Virus record (IMG/VR): IMGVR_UViG_3300011008_000006
DNA: 64,000 nt
Direction: 5' to 3' (one strand)
Source: a virus
Lineage: Duplodnaviria; Heunggongvirae; Uroviricota; Caudoviricetes
The translations under genes and the position numbers were made by a program. Shown in pieces: positions 15,786-34,575 of the stretch. Every line of letters starts with the position of its first letter. The first letter of the stretch is position 1. Below the pieces are notes generated by a model. It did not search any database. It was not told the origin of the DNA and saw only the letters and a list, made by a program, of their open reading frames with translations.

Positions 15786-16325
15786 TTATTCCTCCATATA
15801 CTCTTTTAGAGTAATTACTTTAAATTGACAAGATTTAAAAACTTGTAGTGCGGCCGCGTGGTCTTCTTCACTCAGGCCAGCAGAAGCATCGCTAATGATT
15901 GTCATAGGAATTTCAGGAACAATTGCTTTAATATATTGAGCATTCGCCATTACACAAATACTGCTTACAAAGCCGCATAATACAATTTCATTATAATCTT
16001 CTAAATTAAGATTATTCCAATAATTATAGCCAAAAGTATTTTTTTCAATGACTGCGCATGGTCTTTCTACTACAAGACCTGGATAAATACGCCAACCTTC
16101 TGTATCAGCAACACAATGAATAATAGGAAGGTTTTTTCCTTCTTGAGTTTTTAGATAATTATTATCATGTGTATCCATTGTATAAATAATATCTTCATTA
16201 TTATTATTCATATAGTGAATAAGTTCTTTTAGAGTAGGAATTGCGGCTAAAGCTAATGGATTTGCTAAAGAACCAGTAATAAAATCATTTTGTGCGTCTA
16301 CTACAATTAAACATTTCTTATTCAT
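15786..16325 (-). CDS. isochorismatase-family hydrolase (nicotinamidase PncA-like)
   Basis: CLIVVDAQNDF and catalytic Cys in LCGFVSSICV. Confidence 0.7.
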   Translation of the reverse strand: MNKKCLIVVDAQNDFITGSLANPLALAAIPTLKELIHYMNNNNEDIIYTMDTHDNNYLKTQEGKNLPIIHCVADTEGWRIYPGLVVERPCAVIEKNTFGYNYWNNLNLEDYNEIVLCGFVSSICVMANAQYIKAIVPEIPMTIISDASAGLSEEDHAAALQVFKSCQFKVITLKEYMEE

Positions 16326-16345
16326 TATTTTTCTCCTTTTCTTTT

Positions 16346-16374
16346 ATTATATCTTAATTTTAATTATTTGTCAA
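16346..16374 (-). promoter_or_regulatory. consensus promoter for the isochorismatase-family gene
   Basis: attata 16346-16351; tgtcaa 16369-16374. Confidence 0.6.
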
Positions 16375-16804
16375 ATATTTTTTTTATAATTTCAGGATAT
16401 ACTTCATATGCACTAACATAATATTTATTGATTTGATAATCTGCATAAGAAACAGTTCTTTTTTGATAATAAATTTTTACTTCACTTTTATCATTAATAG
16501 TAAGCCATATATATTTTATATTATCATAACGAGGATCAAGTCTATATTCCTGTTTTGGAGCAATAATATATAAATCTTTGTTTGCTTGTTCACTTGAAAA
16601 TTCTACATAAGCTCCATAATCTCCTATAACAATACGATCGAAGCTAGAACAAATTAATGAACCTGTTGATGTATATAACGGCTATTGATTTTGTAAAAAA
16701 TTAGGAATTAAAGTTTCATAAAGTGTTCGTGAGATTGTAGACTTTTCTATTGATAATTTTTTATACTTGTATTTTTCTGTTAATATATCTTCTAATTTTT
16801 TCAT
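16371..16804 (-). CDS. hypothetical protein (1 in-frame TAG)
   Basis: Not in the ORF track. ATG 16802-16804 behind RBS GAGGAG; TAG near 16682-16684; stop TGA at 16371-16373. Confidence 0.3.
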
Positions 16805-16829
16805 ATTAAATCTCCTCGCGGCTATGCCG

Positions 16830-17028
16830 CCATACTTTTTATTTTTTATTTTTATTTATATATTTATATTATATATTTATATTATATTTATATTACTCAC
16901 ACGATTTTCGTGGATAATGCCACGATTTTCGTGGGAACCTCACACGATTTTCGTGTAAGGTATGCCACGATTTTCGTGGATGAATGCCACGATTTTTGGT
17001 CCAATCAATGCCACGAAAAAAGTGGCAT
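16830..17028. repeat. iteron array plus AT-rich tract (candidate replication origin) next to the Rep-like gene
   Basis: AT-only tract TTTTATTTTTATTTATATATTTATATTATATATTTATATTATATTTATATTA at 16836-16890. Then five or six copies of palindromic CCACGATTTTCGTGG-like repeats at 16901-16913, 16920-16935, 16941-16956, 16964-16979, 16986-17000 and 17008-17028, spaced about 22-30 bp apart. Confidence 0.55.
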
Positions 17029-17418
17029 TTAAGAGTCGTCTTCACTCCAATCTTCTTTATTTTTTAAATTTTCATAATCAATAGGAAGAACAGGTGTAAA
17101 TGTATAAATGTTTTCTTTATCTGGCACAGAAGAAATATATCCTTTTGCTTCAAGTTCTTTTCTTGCTGTTGTAGCACCGTTTTCACCTAATCCTATTTCT
17201 CTTTTAATTGCCGCGGGAGAGTAGAAAAATTCTTTCTTACCATACCAACGTAATAGATAACGCCATACTTTAAAAGCATTACCATTAAGATTTCTCATTG
17301 CTGCGGCTTCATATTTGAAATCAATAGGTTGAATAAATCTATTTCTAGTCTGTGTTTTATGAGTAATTTTTTCTAAATCTACAAGTTTAATTTTTAATTG
17401 ATTTGTATAATTTGCCAT
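17029..17418 (-). CDS. replication-initiator-like winged-helix protein (RepA/Rep_3-like)
   Basis: WRYLLRW...AAIKREIGLGENGATTARKELEAKGYI. It sits immediately adjacent to the iteron array. Start taken at MANYTNQ (RBS GAGGAGG). Confidence 0.5.
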   Translation of the reverse strand: MANYTNQLKIKLVDLEKITHKTQTRNRFIQPIDFKYEAAAMRNLNGNAFKVWRYLLRWYGKKEFFYSPAAIKREIGLGENGATTARKELEAKGYISSVPDKENIYTFTPVLPIDYENLKNKEDWSEDDS

Positions 17419-17431
17419 ATTAGATACCTCC

Positions 17432-17623
17432 TCACTTCTTCGTAATAGAAGAAAGGGCTTGGTGAAGTTCAGGAGTATCTTCAAATAAGTAAACTAAAAA
17501 CTGCGGAAAGTTTTTATTTATATCTGTTCCTATAAATTTAAAACCTTTTTTCCGCAGTTCATATGCTATTCTTTTCGTATATATTTTATAAATTTTAATT
17601 TCTTGTGTCATTAAATAATCCAA
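17432..17623 (-). CDS. hypothetical small protein
   Basis: 63 aa ORF. Confidence 0.3.
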   Translation of the reverse strand: MDYLMTQEIKIYKIYTKRIAYELRKKGFKFIGTDINKNFPQFLVYLFEDTPELHQALSSITKK

Positions 17624-17635
17624 CCTTTTTCTTTT

Positions 17636-17664
17636 ATCATATCATAAACTAAAATATAAGTCAA
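17636..17664 (-). promoter_or_regulatory. promoter (TTGACT-17-TATGAT) for gene 17432..17623
   Basis: atcata 17636-17641; agtcaa 17659-17664. Confidence 0.5.
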
Positions 17665-17668
17665 ATAA

Positions 17669-17690
17669 AAGGGAGGAGGTCCTCCCTTTT
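17669..17690 (-). terminator. rho-independent terminator after the adenine deaminase / permease operon
   Basis: GGGAGGA-GG-TCCTCCC hairpin. On the minus strand it is followed by TTTTATTT. Confidence 0.55.
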
Positions 17691-19458
17691 AAATAACTTG
17701 AGGAACAAATTGTAATGTTTCACCGCGAATTATACCTTTATCAGTAATAATAATACCAGGACGAACAGGTAATGCTAAAATAGCAATAGCTAATAGCATA
17801 GGGCTTAAATTATCAGAAGCATATTCAACCCATTTATCCATTTCTTTAATTTTTTCAGCAATTTTTTGTGCTGGAAGATTAGACATTAATCCGGCGACTG
17901 GTAGCGGTAATGAATATTTTACTTCACCATTTTCGACAAAACACATGCCGCCGCCAATGCGTTCAAGTTCTTTTGCGGCGATATAAGCATCTTTAGAATG
18001 TCTGTAAACAATTGTCATATTATGACTATCATGTGAAATAGTTGAAGCGATACAACCATACATTAAATGAAAATCGCTACAAACAACAGTTGTAATATCA
18101 CCTGAGCCATGTCTATTTACAATACTAAGAAATTGATATTTATTTAAATCTGGAATTACAACTTTCCCATTATAAGCAGGGAAATTCTCATATACTAATT
18201 CTTGATTTGGTACCATACTACTTCTGGCCGCGCTAAATACTAAATGCTTTTCTTCGCTAAATTTTGATGGGATAGTAAATACTTCAGGTGAAGTTATCTG
18301 TGGAATATTTACAGTATTGATATTTGGAATAGTTGTTGCTATTGCTGGTTCAGTTAATAATTTACCATTTTCAACAACCAATTCTCCAGCTACATATACT
18401 TGAAGAGGTTTCTTATCAAATTTTAGATTTGAAACTAATTGCATATCAGCAACATATCCAGGAGCAATTGCGCCGCAATCTTCAAAATGTAATTCACGTG
18501 CAGCATTAATTGTACCAAAACGAATTGTATCAATTGGATCTAAACCACCTTTAATACATTCATTTACAATATGATTAATATGCCCAGTTGTAAGTAAGTC
18601 TGCGGCATGGACATCATCTGTACATAATGATACTAAGTCATGAATAGGAACATTTTGTATACCTTTTAAAAATTCTTGCACTGTATCAGAAAGAGACGAG
18701 GATTTAATATTTACATGCATACCCATGCGAAGCTTTTCACTTAATTCTTCGGCTACGCGAACTTCATGATCACTCACGGGGCCGCCGCATAAATAAGCAC
18801 ATAAATCATTTCCTCTTACATAAGGCGCATGACCTTGAATAAAACCATTTACTTCTTTACCAGCATCAATAATATCGTGCATTCGTTTGTTATCATGGAT
18901 TACTCCAATATAATCCATTACTTCAGCAATACCAATTACTTCTTCTTCTTTTAAAAGTTCTTGTACTTCTTCTTTTAGGAATGAAGCACCAGCGCTTTCC
19001 ACAGAAGGTACAGCAGGAACACAACTTGGTGCGAGTGTAAAAATACGTAATGGAGAATGTCTTGCACTTTCTAACATATACTTTACACCTGGAACACCAG
19101 AAACATTAGCAATTTCATGTGGGTCAGTAACTGCTGTTGTAGTTCCCCAAACAACAGCGGCTTTACCAAAATTTTCTGGAACCATCATTGTACTTTCTAC
19201 ATGCATATGAACGTCAATAAAACCAGGTAATAGATAATAATTATGACCATCTACTTGCTTTTTAGCTGGTGGATTACATTTTTCACCATATGGTCTTACT
19301 CGAACAATTACACCATCTAAAATATCTACTCCGGCGCTATATATTTCACCAGTAAAAACATTAACTAAATAAACATTGTCAATGGAGAGGTCACAAGGGA
19401 CCTCTCCAATGGCAGCCTTAGTTAAGCGAGTTCTATTTTTATTCTTAATAATTTCCAT
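17689..19458 (-). CDS. adenine deaminase (amidohydrolase superfamily)
   Basis: GFIDVHMHVESTMM metal-binding motif; 589 aa; the fold is conserved throughout. Confidence 0.8.
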   Translation of the reverse strand: MEIIKNKNRTRLTKAAIGEVPCDLSIDNVYLVNVFTGEIYSAGVDILDGVIVRVRPYGEKCNPPAKKQVDGHNYYLLPGFIDVHMHVESTMMVPENFGKAAVVWGTTTAVTDPHEIANVSGVPGVKYMLESARHSPLRIFTLAPSCVPAVPSVESAGASFLKEEVQELLKEEEVIGIAEVMDYIGVIHDNKRMHDIIDAGKEVNGFIQGHAPYVRGNDLCAYLCGGPVSDHEVRVAEELSEKLRMGMHVNIKSSSLSDTVQEFLKGIQNVPIHDLVSLCTDDVHAADLLTTGHINHIVNECIKGGLDPIDTIRFGTINAARELHFEDCGAIAPGYVADMQLVSNLKFDKKPLQVYVAGELVVENGKLLTEPAIATTIPNINTVNIPQITSPEVFTIPSKFSEEKHLVFSAARSSMVPNQELVYENFPAYNGKVVIPDLNKYQFLSIVNRHGSGDITTVVCSDFHLMYGCIASTISHDSHNMTIVYRHSKDAYIAAKELERIGGGMCFVENGEVKYSLPLPVAGLMSNLPAQKIAEKIKEMDKWVEYASDNLSPMLLAIAILALPVRPGIIITDKGIIRGETLQFVPQVI

Positions 19459-19468
19459 AATTTACTCC

Positions 19469-20809
19469 TTAAGCAATAAACTGTAGGCAACATAGAATTG
19501 TAATTACAATTGTAAACCAGCCGGGTGATTTTTCACGACTATCAGTAAATAGATAACGAGCCCAGTGTGTTAGACAATAAGTCACTAGACCAAGTGCAAT
19601 AGCATTAGCTAATCCACCAAAAATTGATACAATTAGCATAACGCCAACTGGGAACCATTCTACACTCTTAAAATCTACATCTTTCAATGTTTGCATCATT
19701 GAAATACCGATAAGAATAAGAGCAGGGGCTGTCGCCGCGGTAGGAACCATTAAGAATAATGGCGCAAATAGCATTGACAAGAAGAAACAAATTGAGGTAG
19801 TAATTGCAGTTAAACCAGTGCGGCCACCTGCTTCTACACCAGAGGCAGATTCAACATACGTTGTAATTGTTGTTAAACCAGTTAAAGCGCCAGCAACTGT
19901 CGCGCAACTATCTACTAAGAAAATACGCCCAATAGCTGGAAGATTACCATTTTCATCTAACATTCCTGCTTTACCTGCTACGCCAAGAGCAGTACCTAAA
20001 GTAGAAAAGAAGTCAGACATAAAGAACATTAGCATAAAAGTAAATAATGCTGGTCTTAATGCTCCTAAAATATCAAGCTTAAATGCTACGTCTCCAATAT
20101 TAGAAAGAGCATTTGTAGTGATAATTGAAGAAGGAATACTTACTTGTCCCATACAAATTCCGATTATTGTAATTAAAATAATTGAAATAAGTAATGCGCC
20201 ACGAATATGATATGTTTTTCCTTTAATTCTAATTCGTAAGAAATATAGAATTAATGTAATTGCTAATCCAATCCAAGAAAGTAGTACTGATGGATCAGAA
20301 AAATTTAGATTAAGAGCAAAAGAAGAGCCGCTTACATTAATCATTCCTGCATTAGCAAGAGATAGACGAATTAAGAAAGCACCAACTGATGCACCAACAC
20401 CAATTTTTAAAACTTTAGGAATTACTTCTACTACTTTTTCACGCACTTTAAATACACTTAGGAGGACGAAGATTGTACCTGAAATAAATACAATACCTAA
20501 TCCTTGTTGCCAAGTACAAATACCTTGCGCTACTAGTGTGTAAGCTAAAATAGCGTTAGTGCCCATACCAGGAGCAAGTGCGAATGGCATTTTAGCATAC
20601 AATCCCATTGCTAGTGTTGAAAGACCTGACATTAGAGCGGTCATTAACATAACGCCTGTGCCATTCATTCCTGCCGCAACCATCATATTGGCTTGAACAA
20701 TTAGGATATATGCCATAGTTGCGAATGTAACTACACCAGCAAGTATTTCTGTTCCAATACTTGAACTGCGTTCTTTTACATGAAAATGGCGTTCAATAAA
20801 TTCACTCAT
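19469..20809 (-). CDS. purine (adenine/guanine/hypoxanthine) permease, AzgA/PbuG-like NCS2 family
   Basis: Multi-TM protein; N-terminal region SIGTEILAGVVTFATMAYILIVQANM is AzgA-like. Confidence 0.7.
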   Translation of the reverse strand: MSEFIERHFHVKERSSSIGTEILAGVVTFATMAYILIVQANMMVAAGMNGTGVMLMTALMSGLSTLAMGLYAKMPFALAPGMGTNAILAYTLVAQGICTWQQGLGIVFISGTIFVLLSVFKVREKVVEVIPKVLKIGVGASVGAFLIRLSLANAGMINVSGSSFALNLNFSDPSVLLSWIGLAITLILYFLRIRIKGKTYHIRGALLISIILITIIGICMGQVSIPSSIITTNALSNIGDVAFKLDILGALRPALFTFMLMFFMSDFFSTLGTALGVAGKAGMLDENGNLPAIGRIFLVDSCATVAGALTGLTTITTYVESASGVEAGGRTGLTAITTSICFFLSMLFAPLFLMVPTAATAPALILIGISMMQTLKDVDFKSVEWFPVGVMLIVSIFGGLANAIALGLVTYCLTHWARYLFTDSREKSPGWFTIVITILCCLQFIA

Positions 20810-20852: not shown

Positions 20853-22190
20853 TTATAAATCTTCTTTTTCTGGGTAAACAATTTTAATAGGTTCATCTAT
20901 TTTTATTTTTTCTTCTTTTAAAATAAGATTTAAAATAATACCAATAATAATTGCAAGACAAATACCAGTAATATTAAATGAACCAGAATTAATTGCTAAT
21001 CCAGAGGTGCCAATCATTAGCATAACTGCAAACATCCACATAGTTTTTTGATTGTCAAAATCAATTGATGTTTTCTTTAAGAATTTGATGGCAGAAGCAC
21101 CAATCATACCATAACAGCAAATACTCGCGCCAGCGAATACAGCATTAGGTAGTGCAAGAATAAAACTACTAAATGGCCCAAAGAAGCCAAGAATAATTAG
21201 TTCAATAGCGGCAAGTAAGGTAACATAAACACTCGCGCACTTACTAATTAGAATTGTAGATAGATTTTCTGTATAGGTAGTATTAGGTTGGGCGCCAATA
21301 ATAGTACCGATAAATGAACCAAAGCCATCACCAATTAAAGTACGATGAAGTCCTGGATCAGTTAGGAAGTCACGCTCACAAATATTAGAAGCATTAATTA
21401 CATCACCTAAATGTTCTGCTAAGGCTCCAAGAGCAACTAAGCTGAAACTAATTAAAATTTGAGGGACAACACTCCAATCAAAATTTGTGAATGAAACGTG
21501 CATAAAAGCAAAGTCAGGAATAACAAATAGCTTCATATTCTGGAAGTGAGATAAATCTACTAAATTCTGGATACCACATAGTGCAAGAATAATACTTACA
21601 ATATACCCACCTAGTACGCCAAATAGAATAGGCCATCGCTTCATTAATCCTTTACCATAGAAAGCGCATAATAGTACAAGTATCATTGTAAGGAACATAA
21701 TACCAATACCAAGTAGAGAATATTCACCATTGATTTGTGCGTATGTTGGAATAAAGAAGCCGAGTTGTATTGAAATAATTAAAATAATTGCGCCTGACAT
21801 TACAGGTGTAATTAATTTTGTAATCCAATCAACACCAAATTTCTTTACTAAGAGTGCGGCAAGACTATAAATAATTGCTACTGTTAAGCCGCCAATCATA
21901 ACACCTAAGAAATTCTTTTCTACTGGGCCAGCCAGAGCAATCGCACCAATTACCGCAGAGACTGTTGCACCACTATTAGAAATAACAAGTGGCGCGCGAA
22001 ATTTTGTTATACATAAGAAAAATATTGTTGAGACACCTGCCGCGACAAGACCGGCAGTAAGATTTGTGCCACAAATAAGGGCAATAAGTAATGTCGCTGT
22101 AATACAAGAGAACATTACTTGTAGAGAATAGCCAAGCATTTCTTTTATTGTGTTTGGTTTTTCATTAATACGATAGGTTAAATTACTCAT
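20853..22190 (-). CDS. nucleobase:cation symporter (NCS2-family permease)
   Basis: Multi-TM protein. Start re-assigned to MSNLT (ATG 22188-22190, RBS AAGGAGA). Confidence 0.6.
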   Translation of the reverse strand: MSNLTYRINEKPNTIKEMLGYSLQVMFSCITATLLIALICGTNLTAGLVAAGVSTIFFLCITKFRAPLVISNSGATVSAVIGAIALAGPVEKNFLGVMIGGLTVAIIYSLAALLVKKFGVDWITKLITPVMSGAIILIISIQLGFFIPTYAQINGEYSLLGIGIMFLTMILVLLCAFYGKGLMKRWPILFGVLGGYIVSIILALCGIQNLVDLSHFQNMKLFVIPDFAFMHVSFTNFDWSVVPQILISFSLVALGALAEHLGDVINASNICERDFLTDPGLHRTLIGDGFGSFIGTIIGAQPNTTYTENLSTILISKCASVYVTLLAAIELIILGFFGPFSSFILALPNAVFAGASICCYGMIGASAIKFLKKTSIDFDNQKTMWMFAVMLMIGTSGLAINSGSFNITGICLAIIIGIILNLILKEEKIKIDEPIKIVYPEKEDL

Positions 22191-22539
22191 TTTCATTCTC
22201 CTTTTCAAAATATTTGCCCCAATGATTACACCAATCTGGGACAATAACTGCATTTATTTTATTTAATTCTGGAACACAAATTATTGGGTTAGTATAAATT
22301 TTACCTATAAGACCAATATCTTTTGCATCTTTTTCATCTAAATTTTTATAATAAATATCATTATTTATAGATTCATCAATAATAGAAGCATTGAATAATT
22401 TAGTTGATAATTTTACGCAGAAGCCAACAGAACCATATATAATACAACCAATGCCGTATTGATTTCTTATATATCCTATAATATGTTTTATTTTTTCTTC
22501 ATCAACATTATTTAATATAAAAGAAGTAGGTTTATTCAT
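22183..22539 (-). CDS. hypothetical protein
   Basis: 118 aa ORF. Confidence 0.3.
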   Translation of the reverse strand: MNKPTSFILNNVDEEKIKHIIGYIRNQYGIGCIIYGSVGFCVKLSTKLFNASIIDESINNDIYYKNLDEKDAKDIGLIGKIYTNPIICVPELNKINAVIVPDWCNHWGKYFEKENENE

Positions 22540-22987: not shown

Positions 22988-23506
22988 TTATTCTTCATAT
23001 TCATGTTCCTTATTTTTAATAAAATCAATAGCGTCATCAATATTAGACACTAAAATACCACCTTGTTTAATAAGTCCAGTAACATACAAATTTTGATAAC
23101 TATATTGTTGTTCGCCCAATGAAGCTGCGCCACCTTTATCTTTTGCTTCACTATGAGTTAAAAACATTTGTCGATTATCTGTACAAATGCCTACAATATA
23201 TTTGTGATCACCGCGTTCAATTTTTTCGTGGAATTTACCTATCTCTGCGCAGGTTCCTGCGGGTAAAACATCTCCATCAATACAAGCTATAAGAATATCA
23301 GTATTATTTAGACGAATATTATCACCATTTGCAATTTCTTGAGATCCAGCAAATTTTTTCTTCCCTTCAACACCATTTATTTCTGTATTTTCAACTGGTG
23401 AATATAAATCTACTTTTGGTATACTCTTACGAATTTTTTCTGCCCATTCTGTATTACGAAGTAAGTCTCCATATGTAAAAATTGGCCCTGCTAAATAAAT
23501 TTTCAT
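22988..23506 (-). CDS. nucleoside 2-deoxyribosyltransferase-like protein (NDT/Rcl family)
   Basis: N-terminus MKIYLAGPIF is typical of NDT/DNPH1. Confidence 0.6.
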   Translation of the reverse strand: MKIYLAGPIFTYGDLLRNTEWAEKIRKSIPKVDLYSPVENTEINGVEGKKKFAGSQEIANGDNIRLNNTDILIACIDGDVLPAGTCAEIGKFHEKIERGDHKYIVGICTDNRQMFLTHSEAKDKGGAASLGEQQYSYQNLYVTGLIKQGGILVSNIDDAIDFIKNKEHEYEE

Positions 23507-23507: not shown

Positions 23508-24242
23508 TTATTTTACCTCCAATTCATCTAAAAAATTTTTTAATTCGTCATAATTTATTTTTCTATTATCATAAAATAAATGTAATAATGGAATATTATT
23601 ATTTTTACAATACTATTCTTTTAAAGTAGCATTAATTTCTACACCATCATTGTACCAAGAGTTATTTTCATTATAGTGCTAAACACCATCTACTTCAATA
23701 AAGCCTATTGGTTTATTGTTTTTCATAATTGCGAAATCTATTCTTGTAATACTTTTAGGAATATTTCGTAAATTTCCTAAATTATATTCTTGCTAGAATA
23801 AGATATCGTTCTCTTTTAAATAATTAGATACTAATGTCTCTCCATAAGACTTTAAGCAACCACAAGATAAAGTTTGACCACTAAGTAAATTATTACTGGT
23901 CGCCTATTTAATATTTCCACATTTACATCTGCATTCCCACAATACTGTATGACCATATTTTCCAATAGGTTTAATCACAGTTAAATAACCAAATTGTTGC
24001 CCTGTTAAATTTGCTCTTGTTCTTTTAGAAGTAATTTCTTTTTGTAAACATCCACAACTTTTTGTCCAACCGCTACGAAGTTTTGTACCATCTGCACTAA
24101 ATATTTTCCCACATTCACACTAGCATATCCATTTAGTTATTTTACTTTTATTTTCAGTATCACACCTTAATACAGTAATACGACTTTCAGGAACGCCATG
24201 TTCTTTCATTATCCACCCGGTCATATCAATAAATTTACCCAT
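23508..24242 (-). CDS. zinc-finger plus PD-(D/E)xK (Vsr/DUF559-like) endonuclease, putative homing endonuclease; 5 in-frame TAGs
   Basis: Not in the ORF track. ATG 24240-24242 behind RBS AAGGAAG. Three W.C.C.CG...SCGCL zinc-finger repeats, then RIDFAI...IEVDGV(TAG)HYN nuclease motif. Stop TAA at 23508-23510. Confidence 0.5.
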
Positions 24243-24529
24243 AAAATCACTTCCTTTATAATTGAAGATATTTCTTCTAATTATTAGTGATTATACCAAA
24301 GAAAAACTTTATCAAATTACTCTTTGGTATTATAGGTTATTAAAATTTATCCATTAGATGATAATAAATTTCATCATAATATTTTCTTTTAATTTCTTCT
24401 AATTCTTGAATATATTTTATCATACTTTCTGGCATTATAATATGACCAATCCAGGCATTATCTGAAATAGCGTCGATTTGAAATCCTCGAAAGGTTCCTA
24501 TAAATTTATTTTCCATATTATATCCTCAT

Positions 24530-26034: not shown

Positions 26035-26036
26035 AT

Positions 26037-26585
26037 TTACTCCCCAATTTCTTCAATAATTAGATTAACAGAATTTTCTAAATCTTCTAATGTACCACGA
26101 TTTTCAATAACCCAATTAAAAGCAAAATCATCTAATTGTGTTTCACTTATATGATTTAATTGTTCTTCTGTCATATTAGGATTAATGTATAAACTACCAT
26201 CTTCGTTATACCTATTAACTCTAATAGTAATGACATTTTCATTATAATCATCTACATCTTCATATTCATTAATGAAACGCCAATCAGGAATTAATACTAT
26301 ATCAAAATCATTCTTCGCGGCGTCAATAAATTTAGCTACAATCATTGCCCAATAATCTGGATCATAATTACGCATCATTTTTGTTCCAATACCTTGTAAT
26401 AGATTGCGGCCGGCTTCATCTTTTTCACCATTCCAGCCATAATATTGAATAGCGTAATATTTAACTAAATCCGCGAAATGAATAATTAGCGTTCTTTTAT
26501 TTTGTTCTTTAAAATGTTTTTCCATTTGGTTAGCAACAGCATCTTTACCAGAGCCGCTCTTACCGCTAAACATTATTACTCGCAT
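26037..26585 (-). CDS. deoxynucleoside monophosphate kinase (T4 gp1-like P-loop kinase)
   Basis: MRVIMFSGKSGSGKD resembles T4 gp1 MKLIFLSGVKRSGKD; start taken at MRVIM. Confidence 0.55.
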   Translation of the reverse strand: MRVIMFSGKSGSGKDAVANQMEKHFKEQNKRTLIIHFADLVKYYAIQYYGWNGEKDEAGRNLLQGIGTKMMRNYDPDYWAMIVAKFIDAAKNDFDIVLIPDWRFINEYEDVDDYNENVITIRVNRYNEDGSLYINPNMTEEQLNHISETQLDDFAFNWVIENRGTLEDLENSVNLIIEEIGE

Positions 26586-26777
26586 TAATGAGTTCCTCCA
26601 TTCTAAGATTGAAGTAAAAATGCACAAAAGTACGTTCTTCTTCATTAGGACAATTATTTACATAATTATTTAAAATATTTGTCATCTAAATTACATCTTT
26701 TGTTTTTATAGCAGAATCAAATACTAGTTTTGCTCCATACTTTACTTCATCTGAAATATCAGCAAAAATTTCTTCCA

Positions 26778-27095
26778 TTATTTGCTCTCCTTTGTGGCTT
26801 TAGATAAAATATCAAAAAAAGTTTGAACTTCTTCTGGTGTTTCTAAAATAATTTTTTTTATTGGACGACCGGCTTGTCGTTCCTCATCTTCAGGCATATT
26901 AAAAATATAATAATGTTCTTCTTCATTTTCTGGAATAATACGAGTGCATAAATGAGTGCCAGTTTTTTTACTTAATACTTTTATAATCGTATTATCTTCT
27001 AAATGAGAAATTTCTGTATCTCTATATTCAGGTTTTAACTAACTCATAAAACCAACATATTCATCTCTTGTTACTTCATAAATTTCATTATTCAT
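26778..27095 (-). CDS. hypothetical protein (1 in-frame TAG)
   Basis: ATG 27093-27095 behind RBS AAGAGGT; reads through one TAG to TAA at 26778-26780. Confidence 0.3.
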
Positions 27096-27096
27096 A

Positions 27097-27588
27097 TTAA
27101 CCTCTTTTAAGTTCTTCAGCTTGGGCTTGGGCGATTTCATCACAGCATTCATTCCAATAATTGCCAGCATGTCCTGGTACTTTTTTGAAATCATACCAAA
27201 AATTATCAAAGTAAGGGATAATCTTATACCATAGATCTTGATTAGCAACAGGCTGTCCTTTAGAATTTACCCAACCATTAGAAAGCCATCCTACATACCA
27301 ATCTTGTTCAAAACAATTGATAGCATAAGCTGAATCACTATAAATAATAATTTTTTCATTTGGGCGGCGGACGGATGAAGCATACTCTAATGCTTTAACA
27401 ATAGCTGTTAATTCCATTCTTTGATTAGTAGTATTCTTCTCTCCGCCCGCAAGAGCATTTACTTGCTGACTATCACGAACAGCAATAAATCCCCATCCAC
27501 CAAATGTTTGCTTCCCGCTCTTTTTTAAAGAGCCATCAGTATAGATTTCCAGATTTAAAACTCGTTCTTTACTTCGTCTTTCTTCCAT
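27097..27588 (-). CDS. rnhA: ribonuclease HI
   Basis: IYTDGS...TTNQRMEL...SDS...VPGHAGN..NE.CDEIA aligns with E. coli RnhA motifs. Confidence 0.85.
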   Translation of the reverse strand: MEERRSKERVLNLEIYTDGSLKKSGKQTFGGWGFIAVRDSQQVNALAGGEKNTTNQRMELTAIVKALEYASSVRRPNEKIIIYSDSAYAINCFEQDWYVGWLSNGWVNSKGQPVANQDLWYKIIPYFDNFWYDFKKVPGHAGNYWNECCDEIAQAQAEELKRG

Positions 27589-27646: not shown

Positions 27647-27650
27647 AGAT

Positions 27651-27872
27651 TTAATCTTCAACTTCTTCTGATTCATCATCTTTTACTTCTGGTAACCCAG
27701 CAAGACTGGTTAGAAGACTATAAATTGCAGCTACAGCCGCGGCAGAAAATACTACTCCCCAGTTAATATCAGAGAGTACTGCGCCTACTGTAATTAATGA
27801 ACCTGCTGTTTGCGCGAATGTTTTGATAGCGCGAATACCAGCGGCTATAATCCATTTTTTAGCGTTTTTCAT
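27651..27872 (-). CDS. holin (LL-H-type, 2 TM)
   Basis: 73 aa, two hydrophobic helices, acidic C-terminus DDESEEVED. Confidence 0.5.
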   Translation of the reverse strand: MKNAKKWIIAAGIRAIKTFAQTAGSLITVGAVLSDINWGVVFSAAAVAAIYSLLTSLAGLPEVKDDESEEVED

Positions 27873-28433: not shown

Positions 28434-30380
28434 TTAATCAGGGCTAGATAATAAATTTTCTAAGAGATTCATAAAATGTACTAAAAATTTCATTTTTATT
28501 TTAGTAGAATTTAAAGCTGTTTGTGCAGTTTCTGTCCAAGTATCTATAGAATATGTTGTAGGCTTATTTACGTAGCCATAAATTTCTGTTGTTATACCTT
28601 GTGTAGTTATTTCATCTTCAATTCTATTAAAATTTTTATAAAGATCATCGTAAGTTAATTTTAATACATATGATAGAGGATAATAACCATTATTAACAGA
28701 AAATAAATGAATTTGATGTACATTTGTATCAATATTTTTTGAAGTATATTTTAAAGCATCTTGTACAATGTTTATCTAGCTATCAAATAATAAAATACCA
28801 GCAAAAATAGCTAAATAATTTTCTAATTGGTTTTTTTGATTTTTAGCTACCATATTTGGTCCACTATTTATAATTGCAGCAGTTAGCCATTTTTTATCAA
28901 TTAATTTAATACTTCCTGCGTTAGTTAAGGCTTCAATTTTATTTAACTAATCATCTAGTTTTGCTCCAAGAGAACCACCATGTACTCCATGAGACTGTGA
29001 ACTTCCTTCTTGTCTAGCATAAAGAGAAAGGTAATTTTTTGTTGAATCTTCAATCAAGAAGCATTGGGCTAACGTATTATAACTTTGCGATATTTCCTAT
29101 AATATTTTATCAATTTCTTTACAAGTTTCTCTCCAATTATTAGCCTAATCTTGATAATATTGTGTTGTATTAGTATTACGAAGATGATTAATTAAATCAT
29201 CAATTTTTTTTATAATAGCTTCAATTTTTTTTAACAATTGAGAATTATTATTATTTCCTGTTATAGGAGATAAATAATCAGTATCAATAGCTAAAAATCC
29301 AATTATATTATCTGGTTTAGCCCCAGTAGCTCCAGTATTTCTTGAAGTTAATGCTCCAGCCATTTCAAATGTTAGCAATGATTGAATTTCTGCAAGATCA
29401 TTAGGGTTTGAAATAATACGAAAAGCTTTTTCAGGAACAGTATATTTTTGTAAATTAGCCCATAAAATATCTACTAATTGATTACTATCTTCTATTAATT
29501 CTCCTTGAGAATTAAGCCATTGATTGGCGGAAATGCTATTATTATTTTTTTTAGGAGTAATATGATATGTTTGCATAAGGTTTCTTTGGGTCCAAGGCTA
29601 TTTTTTCGTTCGTTCAATTAGATTATTAATCTGAATAGTTAAGTTTTCATCTAAAATTTCATCTAATTTTTCTATTGTTAATGTAGTATTGCCACCCTCT
29701 CTTCGAGTTATATCAATTTTAGAAAAATAGACTGACATGATAATCTATGATATTTCTATAATTAGAGCCATTAGCTAATCACGATTAAAATCAAGTTTTT
29801 TATTTGTAATAGTAAATAAAGAATTTTTAAAGCGGTTTACAATTTCAGTAATAATTTTACGGGCATTAGTATTATTAATTGGTTCTTCTTGTAATTTTAT
29901 TAATAAATCTTTTAAAAAAGAAGAAGTTCTTTTTATATTATCAATATTATAATAAGTTCTTGTTTTATCTGCGGCTTGAGCATAATTTTCTGAGTTAGCT
30001 TGTAAACGAGCTAACTCATTTTGTAGGTCTGTTAAACCAATGTTTCCAATTTTTAAATTCTATTGAATTTCTTTAACAAAATGTTCCCAATTATCTTCTA
30101 AAGAAGGAATTTCTATATTTAAAATATCTTTTGTTTCACCCTTTAGATAATTTAAAAAAGCTTCTTCTTTACGTCTTTCAGACAAAATTATCTATTGTAA
30201 AAACATAAGAGCATCATTAATAGAATTTGTATTTGTTTCTGGGGAAATCATATCAGTTAAATTTGTTGAAAATTCTTTTGCTATAATATTTAATATTTCA
30301 TCATCTAAATCATCAAAATAAACATATGGTGTTAATGGTTCAAAGATATTTTCTGGGTATGCATTACGGTTTAAAGCCAT
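28434..30380 (-). CDS. large TAG-rich hypothetical protein (about 648 aa), possibly virion-associated
   Basis: ORFs 30192..30380 and 29145..29576 plus unannotated stretches share one frame (high coordinate congruent to 2 mod 3) across at least 10 TAGs, down to TAA at 28434-28436. Confidence 0.4.
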
Positions 30381-30442
30381 CTATATCACCAACCAAAAAA
30401 GACAAGCAATGCTTGTCTTGTTATATTCTATATATATAAGTA

Positions 30443-31345
30443 TTATTCTTCTTCAGAAATTATTTTATATTCTTCAATAACCTTAATTTCTCCTTCTTCT
30501 TTTCTTACAGTAGGGTCATCAAATCCAATAACTTTCATAGTAAGTACATCAAGTACAAATGCTCTTCCAGTAAACGCCGCGGCAGTATCCATATCAATTT
30601 TTTTGCCACCGCGTTTATCTTTTGCACCCATCATATCTCCCCAACAAGCAGGATGAATAGATGCTAATGGTTTATTATGGCTGCCATACGCTTTGTCAGG
30701 TAAATATATTGTAGGAGTATGTCCATGTACACAAATTCTTCCGGTCTTCCACCCCAAAGGAATAAATGTACGGTTCCAAAGAAGAGAATATTCAGCAGTA
30801 TAATGAATGTACATATTATTATATTCTGCATTTGCTACTTCTTCAAAAATATTATATGTAGCACCAGCATGACAGAAATCTACATTTTCATATGAAAATG
30901 TATATGGAAGAATACGGAGTTTATCAATAATATCTTCATCCGCACCATTTACTAGCCAATCAATTAGAGTAATGTCGCCGCCGTTAGCACAATGTAAATT
31001 CACATCTGGATTACTTTGAAATTGATGAATAAATATAGTTGCTTCTTCTTTAGTATAATTATGAAGTTTATTATATTTTTCATCACTACTCGCGTGGTAG
31101 CCAATAATAGCATCACAAGCATCAATAAACATTTGTTCATGATTGCCCATTAAATAAATAATTTGAGGGTCAGAAAGAAGATGTTGCATAATTTGATACC
31201 CATCTGGCCCACGATCAATAGCGTCGCCAAGAAATACAACACAACATTCTGGATCTTGTTGTTTGCAATAATTAATAATAGTTTCATATAATCTTAATTG
31301 TCCATGAATATCACCAAAAGTATATATATTATGCATCTTTCTCAT
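30443..31345 (-). CDS. Ser/Thr protein phosphatase (calcineurin-like metallophosphoesterase, lambda-PPase/ApaH-like)
   Basis: GDIHG, GDAIDRGPD and GNHE motifs. Confidence 0.75.
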   Translation of the reverse strand: MRKMHNIYTFGDIHGQLRLYETIINYCKQQDPECCVVFLGDAIDRGPDGYQIMQHLLSDPQIIYLMGNHEQMFIDACDAIIGYHASSDEKYNKLHNYTKEEATIFIHQFQSNPDVNLHCANGGDITLIDWLVNGADEDIIDKLRILPYTFSYENVDFCHAGATYNIFEEVANAEYNNMYIHYTAEYSLLWNRTFIPLGWKTGRICVHGHTPTIYLPDKAYGSHNKPLASIHPACWGDMMGAKDKRGGKKIDMDTAAAFTGRAFVLDVLTMKVIGFDDPTVRKEEGEIKVIEEYKIISEEE

Positions 31346-31363
31346 CCTCCTTTTTACATAAAT

Positions 31364-31392
31364 ATTATATCATAAATTTTAATATAAGTCAA
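31364..31392 (-). promoter_or_regulatory. consensus promoter with TG-extended -10, for the phosphatase gene
   Basis: attata 31364-31369; agtcaa 31387-31392. Minus strand reads TTGACTtatattaaaatttatgaTATAAT. Confidence 0.6.
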
Positions 31393-31399
31393 TAAAAAA

Positions 31400-31537
31400 G
31401 AACCGTTAAAGTTCTTCAACGGTTCCACCAAGTTGTCTAATTTTTCGTGCAATTTTTGCTGCGATCTTTGCATTATGAAAACCACGTGTTAATAGAAGTT
31501 TACGTCGGGCTGTAAGAATTGCAATTTTTGCTTCATT
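31400..31537 (-). CDS. small basic hypothetical protein (45 aa)
   Basis: ATG 31535-31537 behind RBS GGAGGAA; ends inside a terminator-like hairpin. Confidence 0.25.
31401..31428 (-). terminator. terminator-like hairpin after the small gene 31400..31537
   Basis: gaaccgtt-aaagttcttc-aacggttc (8 bp stem). Confidence 0.4.
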
Positions 31538-32459
31538 ACTCATAAGCAATTCCTCCAAGATTAATAATAGACATAGCATCACTTGTAGTTACAGTAGGAA
31601 GCTTACCATCCCAATTGTTAACTGTATTATATTGAATTAACTCATTGCTGAGAGAAGCGGCGAGTTCTTTATTTGCAGTTGCTTGCGCTTCGGCTTGTAC
31701 TTTTACAGCATATGCGGCGGCATCAGCTTCAATTTTTTGAACTTCCGCGGCTGCGCTAGCCTCAATTTTCTTACGCTCTGCGGCTTGCTGTGCTTCCATA
31801 GTTTTCTGCTCCTGCTCAGTTTGAGCGCGTTGCTTTTCTTGTGTTGCAACTTGCTTGGCTTCAACCGCGGCTTCAAATACATCTGTGAAATCAATATTTT
31901 CAACAGCAAGAGAAATTACATTAATACCTTTTGCTTCTAATTCACTCTTAATTAACTCATAAATAGCATCAGACGCTTCTTGACGATGTTCAATTAATTC
32001 TTCTGCTGTGTAACGAGCAATAACAATTTTAACATCTTCTTGAATACGAGGAGTTACGAAAATATTTACATAATTAATACCAACTTCACGATATAAAATC
32101 ATAGCAGTAGGTTTATTAATATTAATATTAATGCTACCTTGAACATCTACTTGTTGAATATCTCGTGAAAAAGATTGTAAAGCAAATGGAACACGCTGCT
32201 CACGGTTATCCATATTAATTACATTATCCCAAGGCGCATGTGGAGCTAAACCCTCATCTAGTATTTCATCGTGTACCCTACCAAATGTAGTTACAATACC
32301 AGTATGGCCTGTTGGTACATATGAAATGCAAGAACAAATAATTAAAATAATACCTAAAATACTTGCAATTGTTACAGTCACGCCTTTATATTCTGTAAGG
32401 ATAATTGCTAAAATTAAACCGGCTAGAATTATTAAAATACCAAATACAAATAATATCAT
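31536..32459 (-). CDS. SPFH/Band-7 (prohibitin/HflK-like) membrane protein
   Basis: N-terminal TM, PHB-like core, Ala/Gln/Glu-rich coiled-coil tail. Confidence 0.65.
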   Translation of the reverse strand: MILFVFGILIILAGLILAIILTEYKGVTVTIASILGIILIICSCISYVPTGHTGIVTTFGRVHDEILDEGLAPHAPWDNVINMDNREQRVPFALQSFSRDIQQVDVQGSINININKPTAMILYREVGINYVNIFVTPRIQEDVKIVIARYTAEELIEHRQEASDAIYELIKSELEAKGINVISLAVENIDFTDVFEAAVEAKQVATQEKQRAQTEQEQKTMEAQQAAERKKIEASAAAEVQKIEADAAAYAVKVQAEAQATANKELAASLSNELIQYNTVNNWDGKLPTVTTSDAMSIINLGGIAYE

Positions 32460-32812
32460 TATTTATTATCCTCCGTACCATACTTATCAATAATAACTTC
32501 CCAATTCTCTGGATGATTATTAATTTCATCAACAGGAGTGTCTTCTTTTAGTTTATATACTTCAAATAGAGCATCCTCTTCAATTAATTCCCAAAGATAA
32601 TCACTATATTCTTCAGTAGTAGAATTAAAGCGCTCTTCAGCCTTTTCTTCAAGCTCATCCATCACACAAGAATATGATTGAACCACATCCAAAGCCATTT
32701 CATATCCCATTTCGCATGCTTCATCATAATCACCTTCAAAGCATACCCAATCTTCTACATTATTAGAACCGCCATATATTTCATCATAAGCTACAATTAA
32801 ATATTTTGCCAT
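32459..32812 (-). CDS. acidic hypothetical protein
   Basis: 117 aa ORF. Confidence 0.35.
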   Translation of the reverse strand: MAKYLIVAYDEIYGGSNNVEDWVCFEGDYDEACEMGYEMALDVVQSYSCVMDELEEKAEERFNSTTEEYSDYLWELIEEDALFEVYKLKEDTPVDEINNHPENWEVIIDKYGTEDNK

Positions 32813-33225
32813 TCTTCTCTCTCCTTTGTATATACATCTTGAATTTGTTTCATATCGTTATTAGAAATTCCGCCACATATATATTTTTCGTAAAGATTCC
32901 AACAACAAATTTCTAAATAAATATCGTCCATTTTTTCTGGATAAACATCTACTAAATTAAGAAGTTCCCAATCAGGCTTTAGGGCTACAATTTTATTCCA
33001 TACGCTATCCATAGTACGATAACCACGATGTGTCATTTCTTGACGCACATAATAGGCATAAGAGATAAAGTGGTTATAATCATAATTAAGTACAAAATTT
33101 ACGAGAAGATGATTTGGAGTTCCATTCTTCTGAATGGCTCCTGCAATTGCAGATAATTCTCTCCAAGCCGCAACTAATTGTTCTCGTGGTAAAACTTTGA
33201 TAAGTGATGTATGCCATAGCCTCAT
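32797..33225 (-). CDS. pyrimidine-dimer DNA glycosylase-like (T4 endonuclease V/DenV-like)
   Basis: N-terminus LPREQLVAAWRELSAIAGAI parallels DenV [20 protein letters not shown]. Confidence 0.45.
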   Translation of the reverse strand: MRLWHTSLIKVLPREQLVAAWRELSAIAGAIQKNGTPNHLLVNFVLNYDYNHFISYAYYVRQEMTHRGYRTMDSVWNKIVALKPDWELLNLVDVYPEKMDDIYLEICCWNLYEKYICGGISNNDMKQIQDVYTKEREEWQNI

Positions 33226-33446
33226 TAATTACTATCCTCCAAATAATCTTCACTATGTATATCAATATTACAACCCGCAAGCTTTTCTAGAGCAGTAGTA
33301 ATTCGAGCGAAAGTTTCGATTTTTAATATTTCATACATTTCATCTTGTGCTTTTTTAAGTATTGCTTTTTCTATGTCATTGTCAGTTTTAAGATATGTTT
33401 CTGCGAAAGTTGTACCAATTTTATGCACCATTTCATACCAAGTCAT
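33225..33446 (-). CDS. hypothetical protein
   Basis: 73 aa ORF. Confidence 0.3.
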   Translation of the reverse strand: MTWYEMVHKIGTTFAETYLKTDNDIEKAILKKAQDEMYEILKIETFARITTALEKLAGCNIDIHSEDYLEDSN

Positions 33447-33472
33447 ACTATCTATCTCCTTTCTTATATAAA

Positions 33473-33501
33473 AATTATATTATAATTTTAAGAAAAAGTC
33501 A
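33473..33501 (-). promoter_or_regulatory. consensus promoter for the PurA/PurZ-like gene
   Basis: attata 33473-33478; agtcaa 33496-33501. Confidence 0.6.
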
Positions 33502-34575
33502 ATTATATAATTCAATATGAGTTTTATTATCAGAAACGTATAAATTAGTACAAAAATCTGGTTTTACAATTTCTTGCTGTCCGTTAATTGTTTCAATTTT
33601 ATTATCTGTATAATTTAATTGTGTAAATATTAAATTAATATTTGCTTTATTAGGGTATTTACTTGCATCATTTTGAACACGTTTATATAGAGTATCCAAA
33701 TTAACACGACCAAAACGAAGATTACCTTGCCACGGATTTGGTTGATTAACTAAATCAACAATATCAGGATTAATATCTTCTTTTAAACACTCCGCTTCCA
33801 TTGGTCCCGCGCCATGTCTAGTCATATAAGTGCGTGAAACATAATATAAATCTGGAATACAATTTAATTTAGCAATATCTTGTGCAATATTAAATACACC
33901 TACGCAAGATGGCGTCAAATGTGGGAAATCATCTTTATTGGTTTGATCTAATAGTAATCCTTGTCCACCTTCATAAATAATTGTATCATAATGATTTTTC
34001 TTTAATAGCTCTTTAAAATCAATAATTTCACAAGTATTTACAATATATGTAGTGGCGCGCATAAAATTATCCATATTGTAAATTTCATCATAGTCTTGAT
34101 TCCCAATTTCACGTAATTTATTATATAAATAATATGGTTGTGATAACATTTCTGCGAAAACAACCTTATCTAATCTTATACTACGCGTTACTGCCGCAAA
34201 AAGGCCGAAACCACATGAACCATGACGTTTATCGCCGCGTGAAGTTTCTAATTTTCTATTAGCAGCAATATCACAAGGAAGAATTAAGCGACAATTTGGA
34301 CTAAGATAGACTTTTGATTGAGTAAGCCAAAGTGTAATAGGGTCAACTACGAACATAGAATGATAGTAGGTATCGCTACCAAATTCTTCTCCTGCGGCTA
34401 AACAATGACGAACAGTATCTCCAAAACTATGCGCACGTTGTACAGTGCCATTATAAAATACAGTTAAAATTTTCTTATTCTCTTTTGCGGCTTCACGAGC
34501 AAGATTACCAGAAACTAAGCCTTTTCCTTCATCGCCGTAGTTGGCCCCGATTACAACTTTAACTTCCATTACCAA
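33499..34575 (-). CDS. adenylosuccinate synthetase homolog (short, archaeal-type; PurA/PurZ-like)
   Basis: P-loop YGDEGKG, EGGQGLLLD, YMTRHGAGPMEAE (matches YSTRVGAGPFPTE) and GNLRFGRVNLD (matches GRRRCGWLD). Only 358 aa. The guanine-binding TKLDVLD of bacterial PurA reads TQLNYTD here. Confidence 0.65.
   Translation of the reverse strand: MVMEVKVVIGANYGDEGKGLVSGNLAREAAKENKKILTVFYNGTVQRAHSFGDTVRHCLAAGEEFGSDTYYHSMFVVDPITLWLTQSKVYLSPNCRLILPCDIAANRKLETSRGDKRHGSCGFGLFAAVTRSIRLDKVVFAEMLSQPYYLYNKLREIGNQDYDEIYNMDNFMRATTYIVNTCEIIDFKELLKKNHYDTIIYEGGQGLLLDQTNKDDFPHLTPSCVGVFNIAQDIAKLNCIPDLYYVSRTYMTRHGAGPMEAECLKEDINPDIVDLVNQPNPWQGNLRFGRVNLDTLYKRVQNDASKYPNKANINLIFTQLNYTDNKIETINGQQEIVKPDFCTNLYVSDNKTHIELYN

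Follow-up and report, generated by a model that had tools for sequence, protein, structure and literature searches.

Two described groups of enzymes stand closest to the protein considered here. Bacterial adenylosuccinate synthetase (PurA), typified by the E. coli enzyme (PF00709), carries a GDEGKG motif containing Asp13 and Lys16, together with His41, Gln224, Thr239 and a TRxGxGP motif. PurZ and PurZ0 (NCBIfam model NF038379; PDB 6FM1, 7ODX, 7VF6) are short, phage-encoded PurA paralogues that are close to archaeal PurA and have as gene partners either DatZ, MazZ and DpoZ or DutZ and DmtZ. Phage PurZ and PurZ0 have Ser at the Asp13 position in 147 of 147 cases, whereas Asp is found in 99% of PurA (PMC12884076); the S-2L structure paper describes this Ser as replacing the catalytic Asp13 beside the 2-amino group of dGMP, which it accommodates. 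Most phage matches to the PurA Pfam model, about two thirds, lie outside PurZ (481 phage homologues compared with 147 PurZ/PurZ0; PMC12884076). Here we analyzed one short phage homologue of PurA, encoded within a 64,000-nt stretch of tailed-phage DNA (IMG/VR record IMGVR_UViG_3300011008_000006). This stretch, hereafter the window, is the 64-kb portion of the genome to which all statements about gene content refer.

A first-pass annotation of the window had treated positions 15786..34575 as one purine salvage or modified-base block and had proposed that its PurA homologue was either a PurZ-type enzyme or a diverged PurA. Our best explanation of the region as a whole, to which we assign a probability of roughly 0.7, is that the homologue belongs to a conserved cassette whose enzyme is neither PurZ nor PurA, and that a separate nucleobase scavenging cassette lies in the same region. 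The region would thus hold two unrelated accessory units amid core replication genes, carried by a phage of about 180 kb that would read TAG as a sense codon and that has a probable host in the Clostridia.

The PurA-like family

We use the name PAL (PurA-like) for a group, a subset of PHROG 1211, that includes proteins of cluster C mycobacteriophages, Rhizobium phages and Vibrio phages as well as the window protein. PAL is part of the adenylosuccinate-synthetase superfamily, is neither housekeeping PurA nor PurZ/PurZ0, and constitutes a large, mostly phage-borne clade: we recovered 594 clusters (50% identity) at E≤1e-30 and 3143 at E≤1e-10, and counted 6564 homologues at the 90% identity level, many of them on contigs of 120-190 kb. 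The window protein shares its clade, its signature residues and an upstream VWA gene with the proteins of cluster C mycobacteriophages (Bxz1/Sebata), Rhizobium Kleczkowskaviridae and Vibrio phage phiKT1024. Its identity to PAL proteins from phage isolates is 24-32% over trimmed alignment columns.

A neighbor-joining tree of 52 sequences and 375 columns, which included three bacterial PurA and no archaeal PurA, separated bacterial PurA, PurZ plus PurZ0, and PAL with bootstrap values of 100/100 for each group. The window gene fell in the PAL clade, outside PurZ/PurZ0 and outside PurA. This tree supports the separateness of PAL, not a rooted history. When phage genomes were searched by tblastn, PAL and PurZ returned largely non-overlapping sets of records: PAL was found in phages of Mycobacterium (200 records) and Rhizobium and in 191-kb Vibrio phages, and PurZ in Arthrobacter, phiVC8-like Vibrio, Microbacterium, Acinetobacter and Gordonia phages. 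Mycobacterium and Rhizobium phages were also not among the genera listed as carriers of DatZ relatives. A literature search on PurA-like phage enzymes turned up only genome announcements.

Profile scores place the window protein far from both described groups. On the PurA models TIGR00184, NF002223 and NF003295 it scored 45, 49 and 30 bits against cut-offs of 396, 402 and 368, or about 10% of what these models demand, compared with 697 bits for E. coli PurA on TIGR00184. Its score on the PurZ model, 24.8 bits, is below the required 300; the controls, PurZ of phage phiVC8 and PurZ0 of Arthrobacter phage Wayne, scored 397 and 367 bits, and even E. coli PurA (127 bits) exceeded any relative of the window protein. 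No PurZ or PurZ0 was matched at E≤1 when the window protein was compared with solved structures, whereas Wayne PurZ0 matched PurZ0 (2e-78), archaeal PurA (1e-36) and PurZ (1e-31) in the same comparison. Likewise, tblastn queries with phiVC8 PurZ and Wayne PurZ0 gave no match to the window gene at E≤1, while E. coli PurA did match it and is its best non-PAL relative (27% identity over 292 amino acids). The first-pass description of an archaeal-size PurA homologue therefore holds for size (356 amino acids, compared with 432 in E. coli PurA) but not for sequence, since phmmer gave E values of 5e-10 for E. coli PurA and 0.07 for archaeal PurA.

The motifs that had been read from the sequence are present: GDEGKG at residues 12-17, TRHGAGP at 250-256 and TQLN at 316-319. 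The window protein keeps Asp13, Lys16, His41, Gln224 and Thr239, which are catalytic and inosine monophosphate (IMP)-site residues of PurA, and carries the PAL signature (GSCG, NQxH, TRHG and PN..QG.LR.G, with Asp13 kept). Across 150 diverse PAL members, Asp13, Lys16, His41, Gln224 and Thr239 were 98-100% conserved, and Glu221 was likewise invariant or nearly so. Asp13 itself occurred in 150 of 150, compared with Ser in all five PurZ/PurZ0 reference sequences. PAL thus keeps every residue by which PurA moves the γ-phosphate of a nucleoside triphosphate (NTP) onto O6 of a 6-oxopurine nucleotide without a 2-amino group. Together with the profile scores, the separate clade and the tblastn results, these observations set aside the proposal of a PurZ-type enzyme; a diverged PurA was the closer of the two options offered.

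Other parts of the active site have been replaced. In the same 150 sequences, the position of E. coli V273 is His in 100%, that of T129 is Cys in 93% and that of N38 is Gln in 97%; the corresponding residues of the window protein are His252, Cys119 and Gln44. Where PurA has its GATTGRRRR loop (T300, T301, R303, R305), PAL has PN(P/E)(W/F/H)QGx(L/I)R(F/Y)G, in which only one Arg is conserved; the window protein reads PNPWQGNLRFG here. In E. coli PurA, mutagenesis identifies V273 and the T300-R305 segment as the elements that recognize L-aspartate. Hence the aspartate-recognition elements (V273 replaced by His, and the TTGRxRR loop) have been exchanged in PAL, as has the guanine-recognizing Lys331.

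At the guanine-recognition motif, PurA has TKLD, PAL has T(H/Q/C/W)x(N/D) and the window protein has TQLN. None of the 150 PAL sequences retains Lys at position 331, where the residue is His (74%), Cys (12%), Gln (9%) or Trp (5%). At position 333, 57% of the same sequences have Asn and 37% have Asp. The altered guanine-specificity motif noted in the first-pass annotation is therefore real, and it extends to the family as a whole. The D333N substitution switches E. coli PurA from GTP to xanthosine triphosphate. In our alignment position 333 is Asn in ATP-using PurZ, as in the window protein, and Asp in PurZ0, which uses GTP; isolate PAL proteins often have Asp here (Rhizobium phage RHph_TM30, mycobacteriophage Sebata). 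TQLN thus suggests a non-GTP donor in the Asn variants, and is not evidence for PurZ.

Both RefSeq and PHROG 1211 call PAL proteins, among them those of RHph_TM30 (locus L010) and Sebata (L011), "2-aminooxy adenylosuccinate synthetase", which is the PurZ label. The RefSeq proteins so labeled score 30-56 bits on the PurZ model and keep Asp13, and the name is probably an over-annotation.

The open reading frame (ORF) had been assigned to 33499..34575 with 358 amino acids. Its presence is borne out, but the ATG at 34569 (356 amino acids) is a likelier start than the TTG at 34575, because this ATG overlaps the upstream stop codon as TAATG and homologues have 353-362 amino acids. Extension further upstream, through the in-frame TAG at 34578, was ruled out: homologues begin at the ATG.

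Conserved partners of the PAL gene

The gene upstream of PAL encodes a protein with a VWA fold and a DxSxS-type metal site (DxT/SGS MIDAS motif), with Asp70 and Ser74 among the MIDAS residues. Alignment of its homologues revealed an invariant N-terminal Met-Gly and an invariant glycine-rich loop, GGG(N/Q)..E.Y; the window protein has the motifs QFE(S/A)D and GGGGN..E.Y. A VWA gene lies less than 3 kb upstream of PAL in all 15 loci examined, with at most one small ORF between the two in 14. It was seen in the window and its close relatives (L003, L004, L019), in L016, L017, L022 (MT835469), L023, L025 (partial), L027, L029, L030 and L031, and in phiKT1024, RHph_TM30 and Sebata. In L029 the distance is 2.5 kb and a Band 7 gene intervenes. 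Homologues of the window VWA protein were recognized in phiKT1024 (E = 1e-51), RHph_TM30 (2e-41) and Sebata (2.5e-33), and the VWA partner family equals PAL in size, with 7198 homologues counted at 90% identity. A VWA protein identical to that of the window is encoded on a contig of 179,680 bp.

A third, methionine-rich protein precedes the VWA protein in most loci. Proteins of this kind have about 190-260 amino acids and an acidic C-terminus, and fall into two sequence types that are weakly linked (E = 8e-6). One type is encoded directly upstream of VWA in the window, L003, L004, L016, L019, L022, L027 and L031; the second occupies the same position in phiKT1024, RHph_TM30 and L023. The Met-rich protein has 3804 homologues, and its AlphaFold2 model (pLDDT 47) was unusable. 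Its acidic or FD-type tail could be a ligand of the MIDAS site. In Sebata, L017 and L029, a kinase-like protein takes the place of the Met-rich one; the L017 protein, which has a J-domain-like HPD motif, is homologous to that of Sebata (named a Ser/Thr kinase) and to that of L029. Neither the VWA nor the Met-rich protein matched any Pfam family, and PADLOC defense models gave no credible match to the three cassette proteins or to the proteins of the bacterial locus. That locus is L017 (L017:2192-7227, on a Logan contig of SRR27913906), where VWA and PAL are flanked by genes for RF1, a pseudouridine synthase, L32 and ArgRS; the pair therefore also occurs in a bacterial chromosomal setting.

Several other genes recur around the cassette. 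A Band 7 gene lies near PAL in L003, L004, L005, L019, L023, L029 and L031. In loci that are otherwise divergent, Band 7/SPFH genes occur within a few kb of PAL, often with a Metallophos phosphoesterase. Further recurrent neighbors encode NADAR or Macro domains, PRPS-like and NAMPT proteins, and RNA-repair proteins (RNA ligase, Pnkp-like, RtcB and Thg1). A search of the window for homologues of the NADAR, Macro, J-domain/kinase-like, TROVE and MoxR proteins that accompany PAL in other loci found none. On the upstream side, the window cassette is followed by an RNA-repair-like cluster (36008..44258) that adjoins a tRNA array and also holds a DUF5662 protein.

The proposed scavenging cassette and the surrounding genome

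Profile searches with Pfam, NCBIfam and PHROG models showed that all seven genes named in the first-pass annotation are present, look intact, lie on the minus strand and belong to the families and places given for them (Table 1). The region is phage DNA with unusual nucleobase and nucleotide genes, as had been described. It is not one functional block: 15786..34575 combines an accessory cassette that varies between related phages with genes for core replication, repair and lysis and with the separate, conserved PurA-like cassette.

Table 1. Features of the window discussed in the text, in order of position
Feature	Position	Strand	Evidence and remarks
Gyrase A	7069..9441		Phage-encoded
GIY-YIG homing-endonuclease-like gene with TAGs	9918..10664		Flanks gyrase genes
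Gyrase B	10691..12565		Phage-encoded; apart from gyrase A
GIY-YIG homing-endonuclease-like gene	13717..14490		Flanks gyrase genes
Nicotinamidase-like isochorismatase-family hydrolase	15786..16325	-	PF00857, 81 bits
Adenine deaminase	17689..19458	-	Adenine_deam_C, 134 bits; metal-ligand motifs intact by eye
AzgA/AdeQ-type purine (adenine-family) permease	19469..20809	-	PF00860; 10 nt upstream of deaminase
NAT-type NCS2 permease	20853..22253	-	NCBIfam uracil permease, E 1.3e-66; pbuX (xanthine), E 6.6e-33
NDT-type deoxyribosyltransferase	22988..23506	-	PF05014, 43.1 bits (cut-off 28.8); phrog_1817; PDB 7m5h, E 1.8e-22
ATP-dependent DNA ligase	24916..26034	-	Pfam, NCBIfam and PHROG matches
dNMP kinase	26037..26645	-	Pfam, NCBIfam and PHROG matches
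RNase H	27097..27588	-	Pfam, NCBIfam and PHROG matches
r1t-type holin	27651..27872		Among replication genes
Metallophos phosphoesterase	30443..31345	-	Pfam; recurrent neighbor of PAL cassette
Band 7/SPFH protein	31536..32459	-	Pfam; recurrent neighbor of PAL cassette
DenV-like pyrimidine-dimer glycosylase	32797..33225	-	Pfam; recurrent neighbor of PAL cassette
PurA-like enzyme, PAL clade, 356 amino acids	33499..34569	-	PF00709, 62.6 bits; phrog_1211, E 1.9e-34
VWA/MIDAS-domain protein, 282 amino acids	34569..35417	-	phrog_2971; stop overlaps PAL start (TAATG)
Met-rich third cassette protein, 194 amino acids	35420..36004	-	β-rich N-terminal part; Met/Gly/Asn-rich tail, acidic end
RNA ligase	36008..37369		In RNA-repair-like cluster adjoining tRNA array
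DUF2828/DUF7788 protein	41592..43094		
Metallophos_2 and AAA_33 pair, polynucleotide kinase-phosphatase-like	43144..44258		

The deaminase contains both expected Pfam domains (amidohydrolase and Adenine_deam_C) well above their cut-offs and is 29% identical to E. coli AdeD over its full length; with 427 bits on TIGR01178, against a cut-off of 472.5, its activity is predicted. The adjoining permease is 35% identical to E. coli AdeQ over 419 amino acids, and in E. coli adeQ likewise adjoins adeD. The window pair differs from this bacterial pair in being phage-borne and co-oriented with a 10-nt gap, and in being joined by a second permease and the deoxyribosyltransferase (NDT). Both permeases do belong to NCS2, as had been claimed. 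Purine specificity is supported for the AdeQ-like one, whereas the other is of the uracil type; the probable start of the latter is near 22190, at a Met internal to the ORF, and its homologue in L015 begins at this Met.

The NDT assignment also stands: its nearest solved relative is the nucleoside transferase 7m5h, and the Tyr and Glu of the predicted catalytic triad are recognizable by eye. Homologues are common in Bacillus, Geobacillus and Lactococcus phages. We ruled out that this protein is like DmtZ, the dAMP hydrolase/transferase of PurZ0 phages, since Wayne DmtZ gave no match to it at E≤1 while the transferase matched at 1.8e-22. The nicotinamidase-like hydrolase was identified correctly (its best solved relative is the Pyrococcus horikoshii nicotinamidase, E = 2.4e-10; motifs VVDxQxDF, DxH, HCV and C..CV), as was the dNMP kinase. 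The motifs and relatives of the hydrolase point to a putative role in NAD salvage, not in purine metabolism.

Comparison with related contigs separated the two cassettes. Relatives whose PAL protein is 71% identical to that of the window have PAL, Band 7, Metallophos, RNase H, dNMP kinase and ligase in the same succession, but after the ligase they have a Dam methyltransferase instead of NDT, permeases and deaminase; in L003 and L004 the scavenging cassette is absent at this position. Ligase, dNMP kinase and RNase H occur in identical order in relatives that have no permease and deaminase cassette there, and 24916..27588 is a stretch of core replication genes that is part of neither cassette. 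Conversely, the cassette is found on L015, a 112-kb phage-like contig with gyrB and PhoH binned in a metagenome-assembled genome (MAG) of Acutalibacteraceae, as an NDT-like gene, a uracil-type permease (79% identical), an AdeQ-like permease (88%) and a deaminase (71%). Partial versions occur on two contigs in Clostridia MAGs, one labeled rumen-derived and the other from roe-deer omasum, and proteins 71-76% identical to the deaminase are encoded on phage-like contigs binned in Clostridia MAGs. The cassette has a G+C content of 0.34-0.36, and both its G+C and its AT skew differ from those of the flanks. Together, these observations show that related phages differ in the scavenging cassette and that the two cassettes are inherited separately.

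Genomes of genuine phage isolates contain practically no adenine deaminase, and a scan of IMG/VR found no close relatives of the window deaminase. Most of the "phage" tblastn matches for the deaminase and the purine permease came from records that are UNVERIFIED or unannotated. Two that we opened (OR847035.1 and OR844989.1, marked UNVERIFIED_ORG) carry bacterial-type PurA, and such matches were not counted as phage occurrences. The OR84xxxx records involved bear the names Listeria phage LM 4-11-1 / LM 4-14-1, Staphylococcus phage SA 1306 Kay and Enterococcus phage Efs 1-1-1; other contigs under these names are unannotated and have adenine deaminase or purine permease matches. They look like bacterial contigs that give rise to false phage matches.

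The simplest reading of the cassette is nucleobase scavenging for an AT-rich genome. The uracil-type and AdeQ-like permeases would import uracil and adenine-family purines, the deaminase would turn adenine into hypoxanthine in the manner of the bacterial adeQ-adeD pair, NDT would exchange bases on deoxynucleosides, and host phosphoribosyltransferases and kinases would complete the pathway. An adenine-depleting strategy had been suggested for the deaminase; its pairing with the permease mirrors the bacterial salvage pair, and scavenging is the simpler account. The earlier remark that the window has no recognizable datZ or mazZ was confirmed and extended: neither Pfam nor tblastn at E≤1 detected DatZ, MazZ, DpoZ or PolA, DutZ, DmtZ or DUF5664 in its 64 kb.

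All long ORFs of the window are on the minus strand, and its G+C content is about 0.32. Megablast of 15786-37369 against phage genomes gave no match. The phage appears to recode TAG as sense: reading TAG through raises the total of long ORFs from 11,882 to 16,087 amino acids, and among the 28 tRNA genes of a minus-strand array (44879..61052) is a 95-nt suppressor tRNA with anticodon CTA, which reads TAG (51143..51237; labeled Pyl by ARAGORN). Genes that are intact only with readthrough lie at 9918..10664, 23508..24290, 28434..30452, 48211..48789, 55641..57338, 57335..58318 and 62199..63998. TAG-dependent genes include an ORF of 672 amino acids with 10 TAGs and glycosyltransferase-, PAPS-reductase-, tail-fiber- and homing-endonuclease-like ORFs. 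In the alignment with a relative that has no TAG at the site, one TAG falls opposite Gln, a hint that the codon may specify glutamine. None of the metabolic genes singled out in the first-pass annotation has an in-frame TAG. Related contigs are binned in three Clostridia MAGs; with the r1t-type holin and the relatives of NDT in phages of Firmicutes, this places the host probably in the Clostridia. The phage is one of the gut or rumen.

Possible roles of PAL

How would PAL act? Our leading proposal, which we hold tentatively and at a little under even odds, is that it carries out the two-step PurA reaction by forming a 6-phosphoryl intermediate on IMP or its deoxy form (dIMP), which an amine then displaces. 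IMP or dIMP would be the substrate because Asp13 is kept and no 2-amino group would be accommodated. In the Asn333 variants, among them the window protein, the phosphate would come from ATP or some other donor that is not GTP. Aspartate bound in an altered mode, or else another amine, would be the incoming amine, and PAL would work in complex with its VWA partner. PAL would in this manner keep or restore adenine nucleotides during infection.

Several points weigh against the explanation we prefer. Substrates have been assigned to PAL solely from residue conservation, and the alignment of PAL with the aspartate loop of E. coli PurA is uncertain and approximate. PurZ and archaeal PurA also have divergent loops and still use aspartate. 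The tree was obtained by neighbor joining with the small PurA sample given above, and the host is assigned from metagenomic binning. The negative result for Z-pathway genes covers 64 kb, so that such genes may lie elsewhere in the genome. Our explanation leaves the VWA and Met-rich partners unaccounted for, and any purely phage-centered role must accommodate the bacterial context of L017.

A second possibility, which we find rather doubtful, gives the partners a larger part. The Met-rich, VWA and PAL proteins would form an undescribed enzyme system in which a rebuilt amine pocket (the invariant His at V273, the Cys at T129 and the new PN..QG.LR loop) would join the activated 6-oxopurine nucleotide to a compound other than free aspartate. 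Candidates would be ammonia, a different amino acid or the VWA protein itself, through its invariant N-terminal glycine. The system would yield an N6-substituted adenine nucleotide of a new kind or would re-aminate (d)IMP directly, and would let phages reverse or escape host attacks on the adenine-nucleotide pool.

The invariance of all catalytic and IMP-contact residues is also what one would see if PAL were an ordinary auxiliary PurA, making adenylosuccinate from IMP, L-aspartate and NTP to raise AMP synthesis, with hypoxanthine from the deaminase cassette feeding it and the VWA protein incidental or regulatory. Bacterial PurA is indeed the nearest non-PAL relative, purine import and hypoxanthine production are encoded in the same genome, and PurZ illustrates that a divergent aspartate loop can bind aspartate. 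We nevertheless judge this reading unlikely. PurA models give the window protein 45-49 bits where about 400 are required, and the elements that determine aspartate recognition have changed: V273 is always replaced by His, and PAL no longer has the T300/T301/R303/R305 loop. PAL is always encoded with a VWA protein, the genes usually overlapping or tightly spaced, and most PAL-carrying relatives have no deaminase cassette at the same position.

Because PurA chemistry is the reverse of adenine-nucleotide deamination, the cassette could instead serve counter-defense, re-aminating IMP or dIMP after the action of deaminase-based immunity (RADAR, Cad1, Kongming KomA) or, in a variant of this idea, removing dIMP, the precursor of the dITP alarm signal. 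Its neighbors include genes associated with damage reversal or counter-defense: NADAR (L003, phiKT1024), Macro, PRPS-like and NAMPT (L023), and RNA ligase, Pnkp-like, RtcB and Thg1 (window, L029). A dNMP kinase, the trigger of Kongming, is also encoded by the phage. Both versions seem improbable to us, since direct evidence for them is absent, gene neighborhood in large phages is a weak guide, the text of the Kongming preprint does not mention adenylosuccinate, PADLOC models gave no matches, and the VWA and Met-rich partners would be left unexplained.

The constant pairing with a VWA gene, the degenerate NTP-base motif and the J-domain/kinase-like first gene of some cassettes, which suggests action at the protein level, would suit a non-metabolic NTPase switch or scaffold that works with the VWA/MIDAS protein, as AAA+/VWA pairs do elsewhere. 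This is very unlikely: Gln224, Thr239, Asp13 (the base) and His41 (the acid) are 98-100% conserved (n = 150), which would be unexpected in a mere switch.

Least of all can we credit a PurZ-type enzyme in a region that supports 2-aminoadenine or another modified base, with deaminase and NDT removing adenine: a short protein without the guanine-specific Lys and Asp, the Asn at 333 shared with ATP-using PurZ, the label given to its relatives by RefSeq and PHROG, and the place of an NDT-family DmtZ and of adenine release in PurZ0 pathways speak for it, but PAL keeps Asp13 where all PurZ/PurZ0 have Ser, scores lower on the PurZ model than E. coli PurA does and forms its own clade, DatZ, MazZ, DpoZ, DutZ and DmtZ are missing from the window, the window NDT is not DmtZ-like, and PAL and the deaminase cassette are not co-inherited.

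Recognizing PAL as a family of its own avoids false predictions of Z-DNA phages, as it lacks every PurZ feature that could be assessed and yet is labeled PurZ-type for some members in databases. The scavenging cassette, with two predicted nucleobase importers and an adenine deaminase in one phage, would be a rare case of a virus altering the uptake of its host in the gut or rumen. PAL itself is a large family present in cultured, tractable phages, namely cluster C mycobacteriophages and Vibrio and Rhizobium phages. Its remodeled aspartate and guanine sites and its obligatory VWA partner therefore make it a well-defined target, in which new nucleotide chemistry or a counter-defense function may be found.

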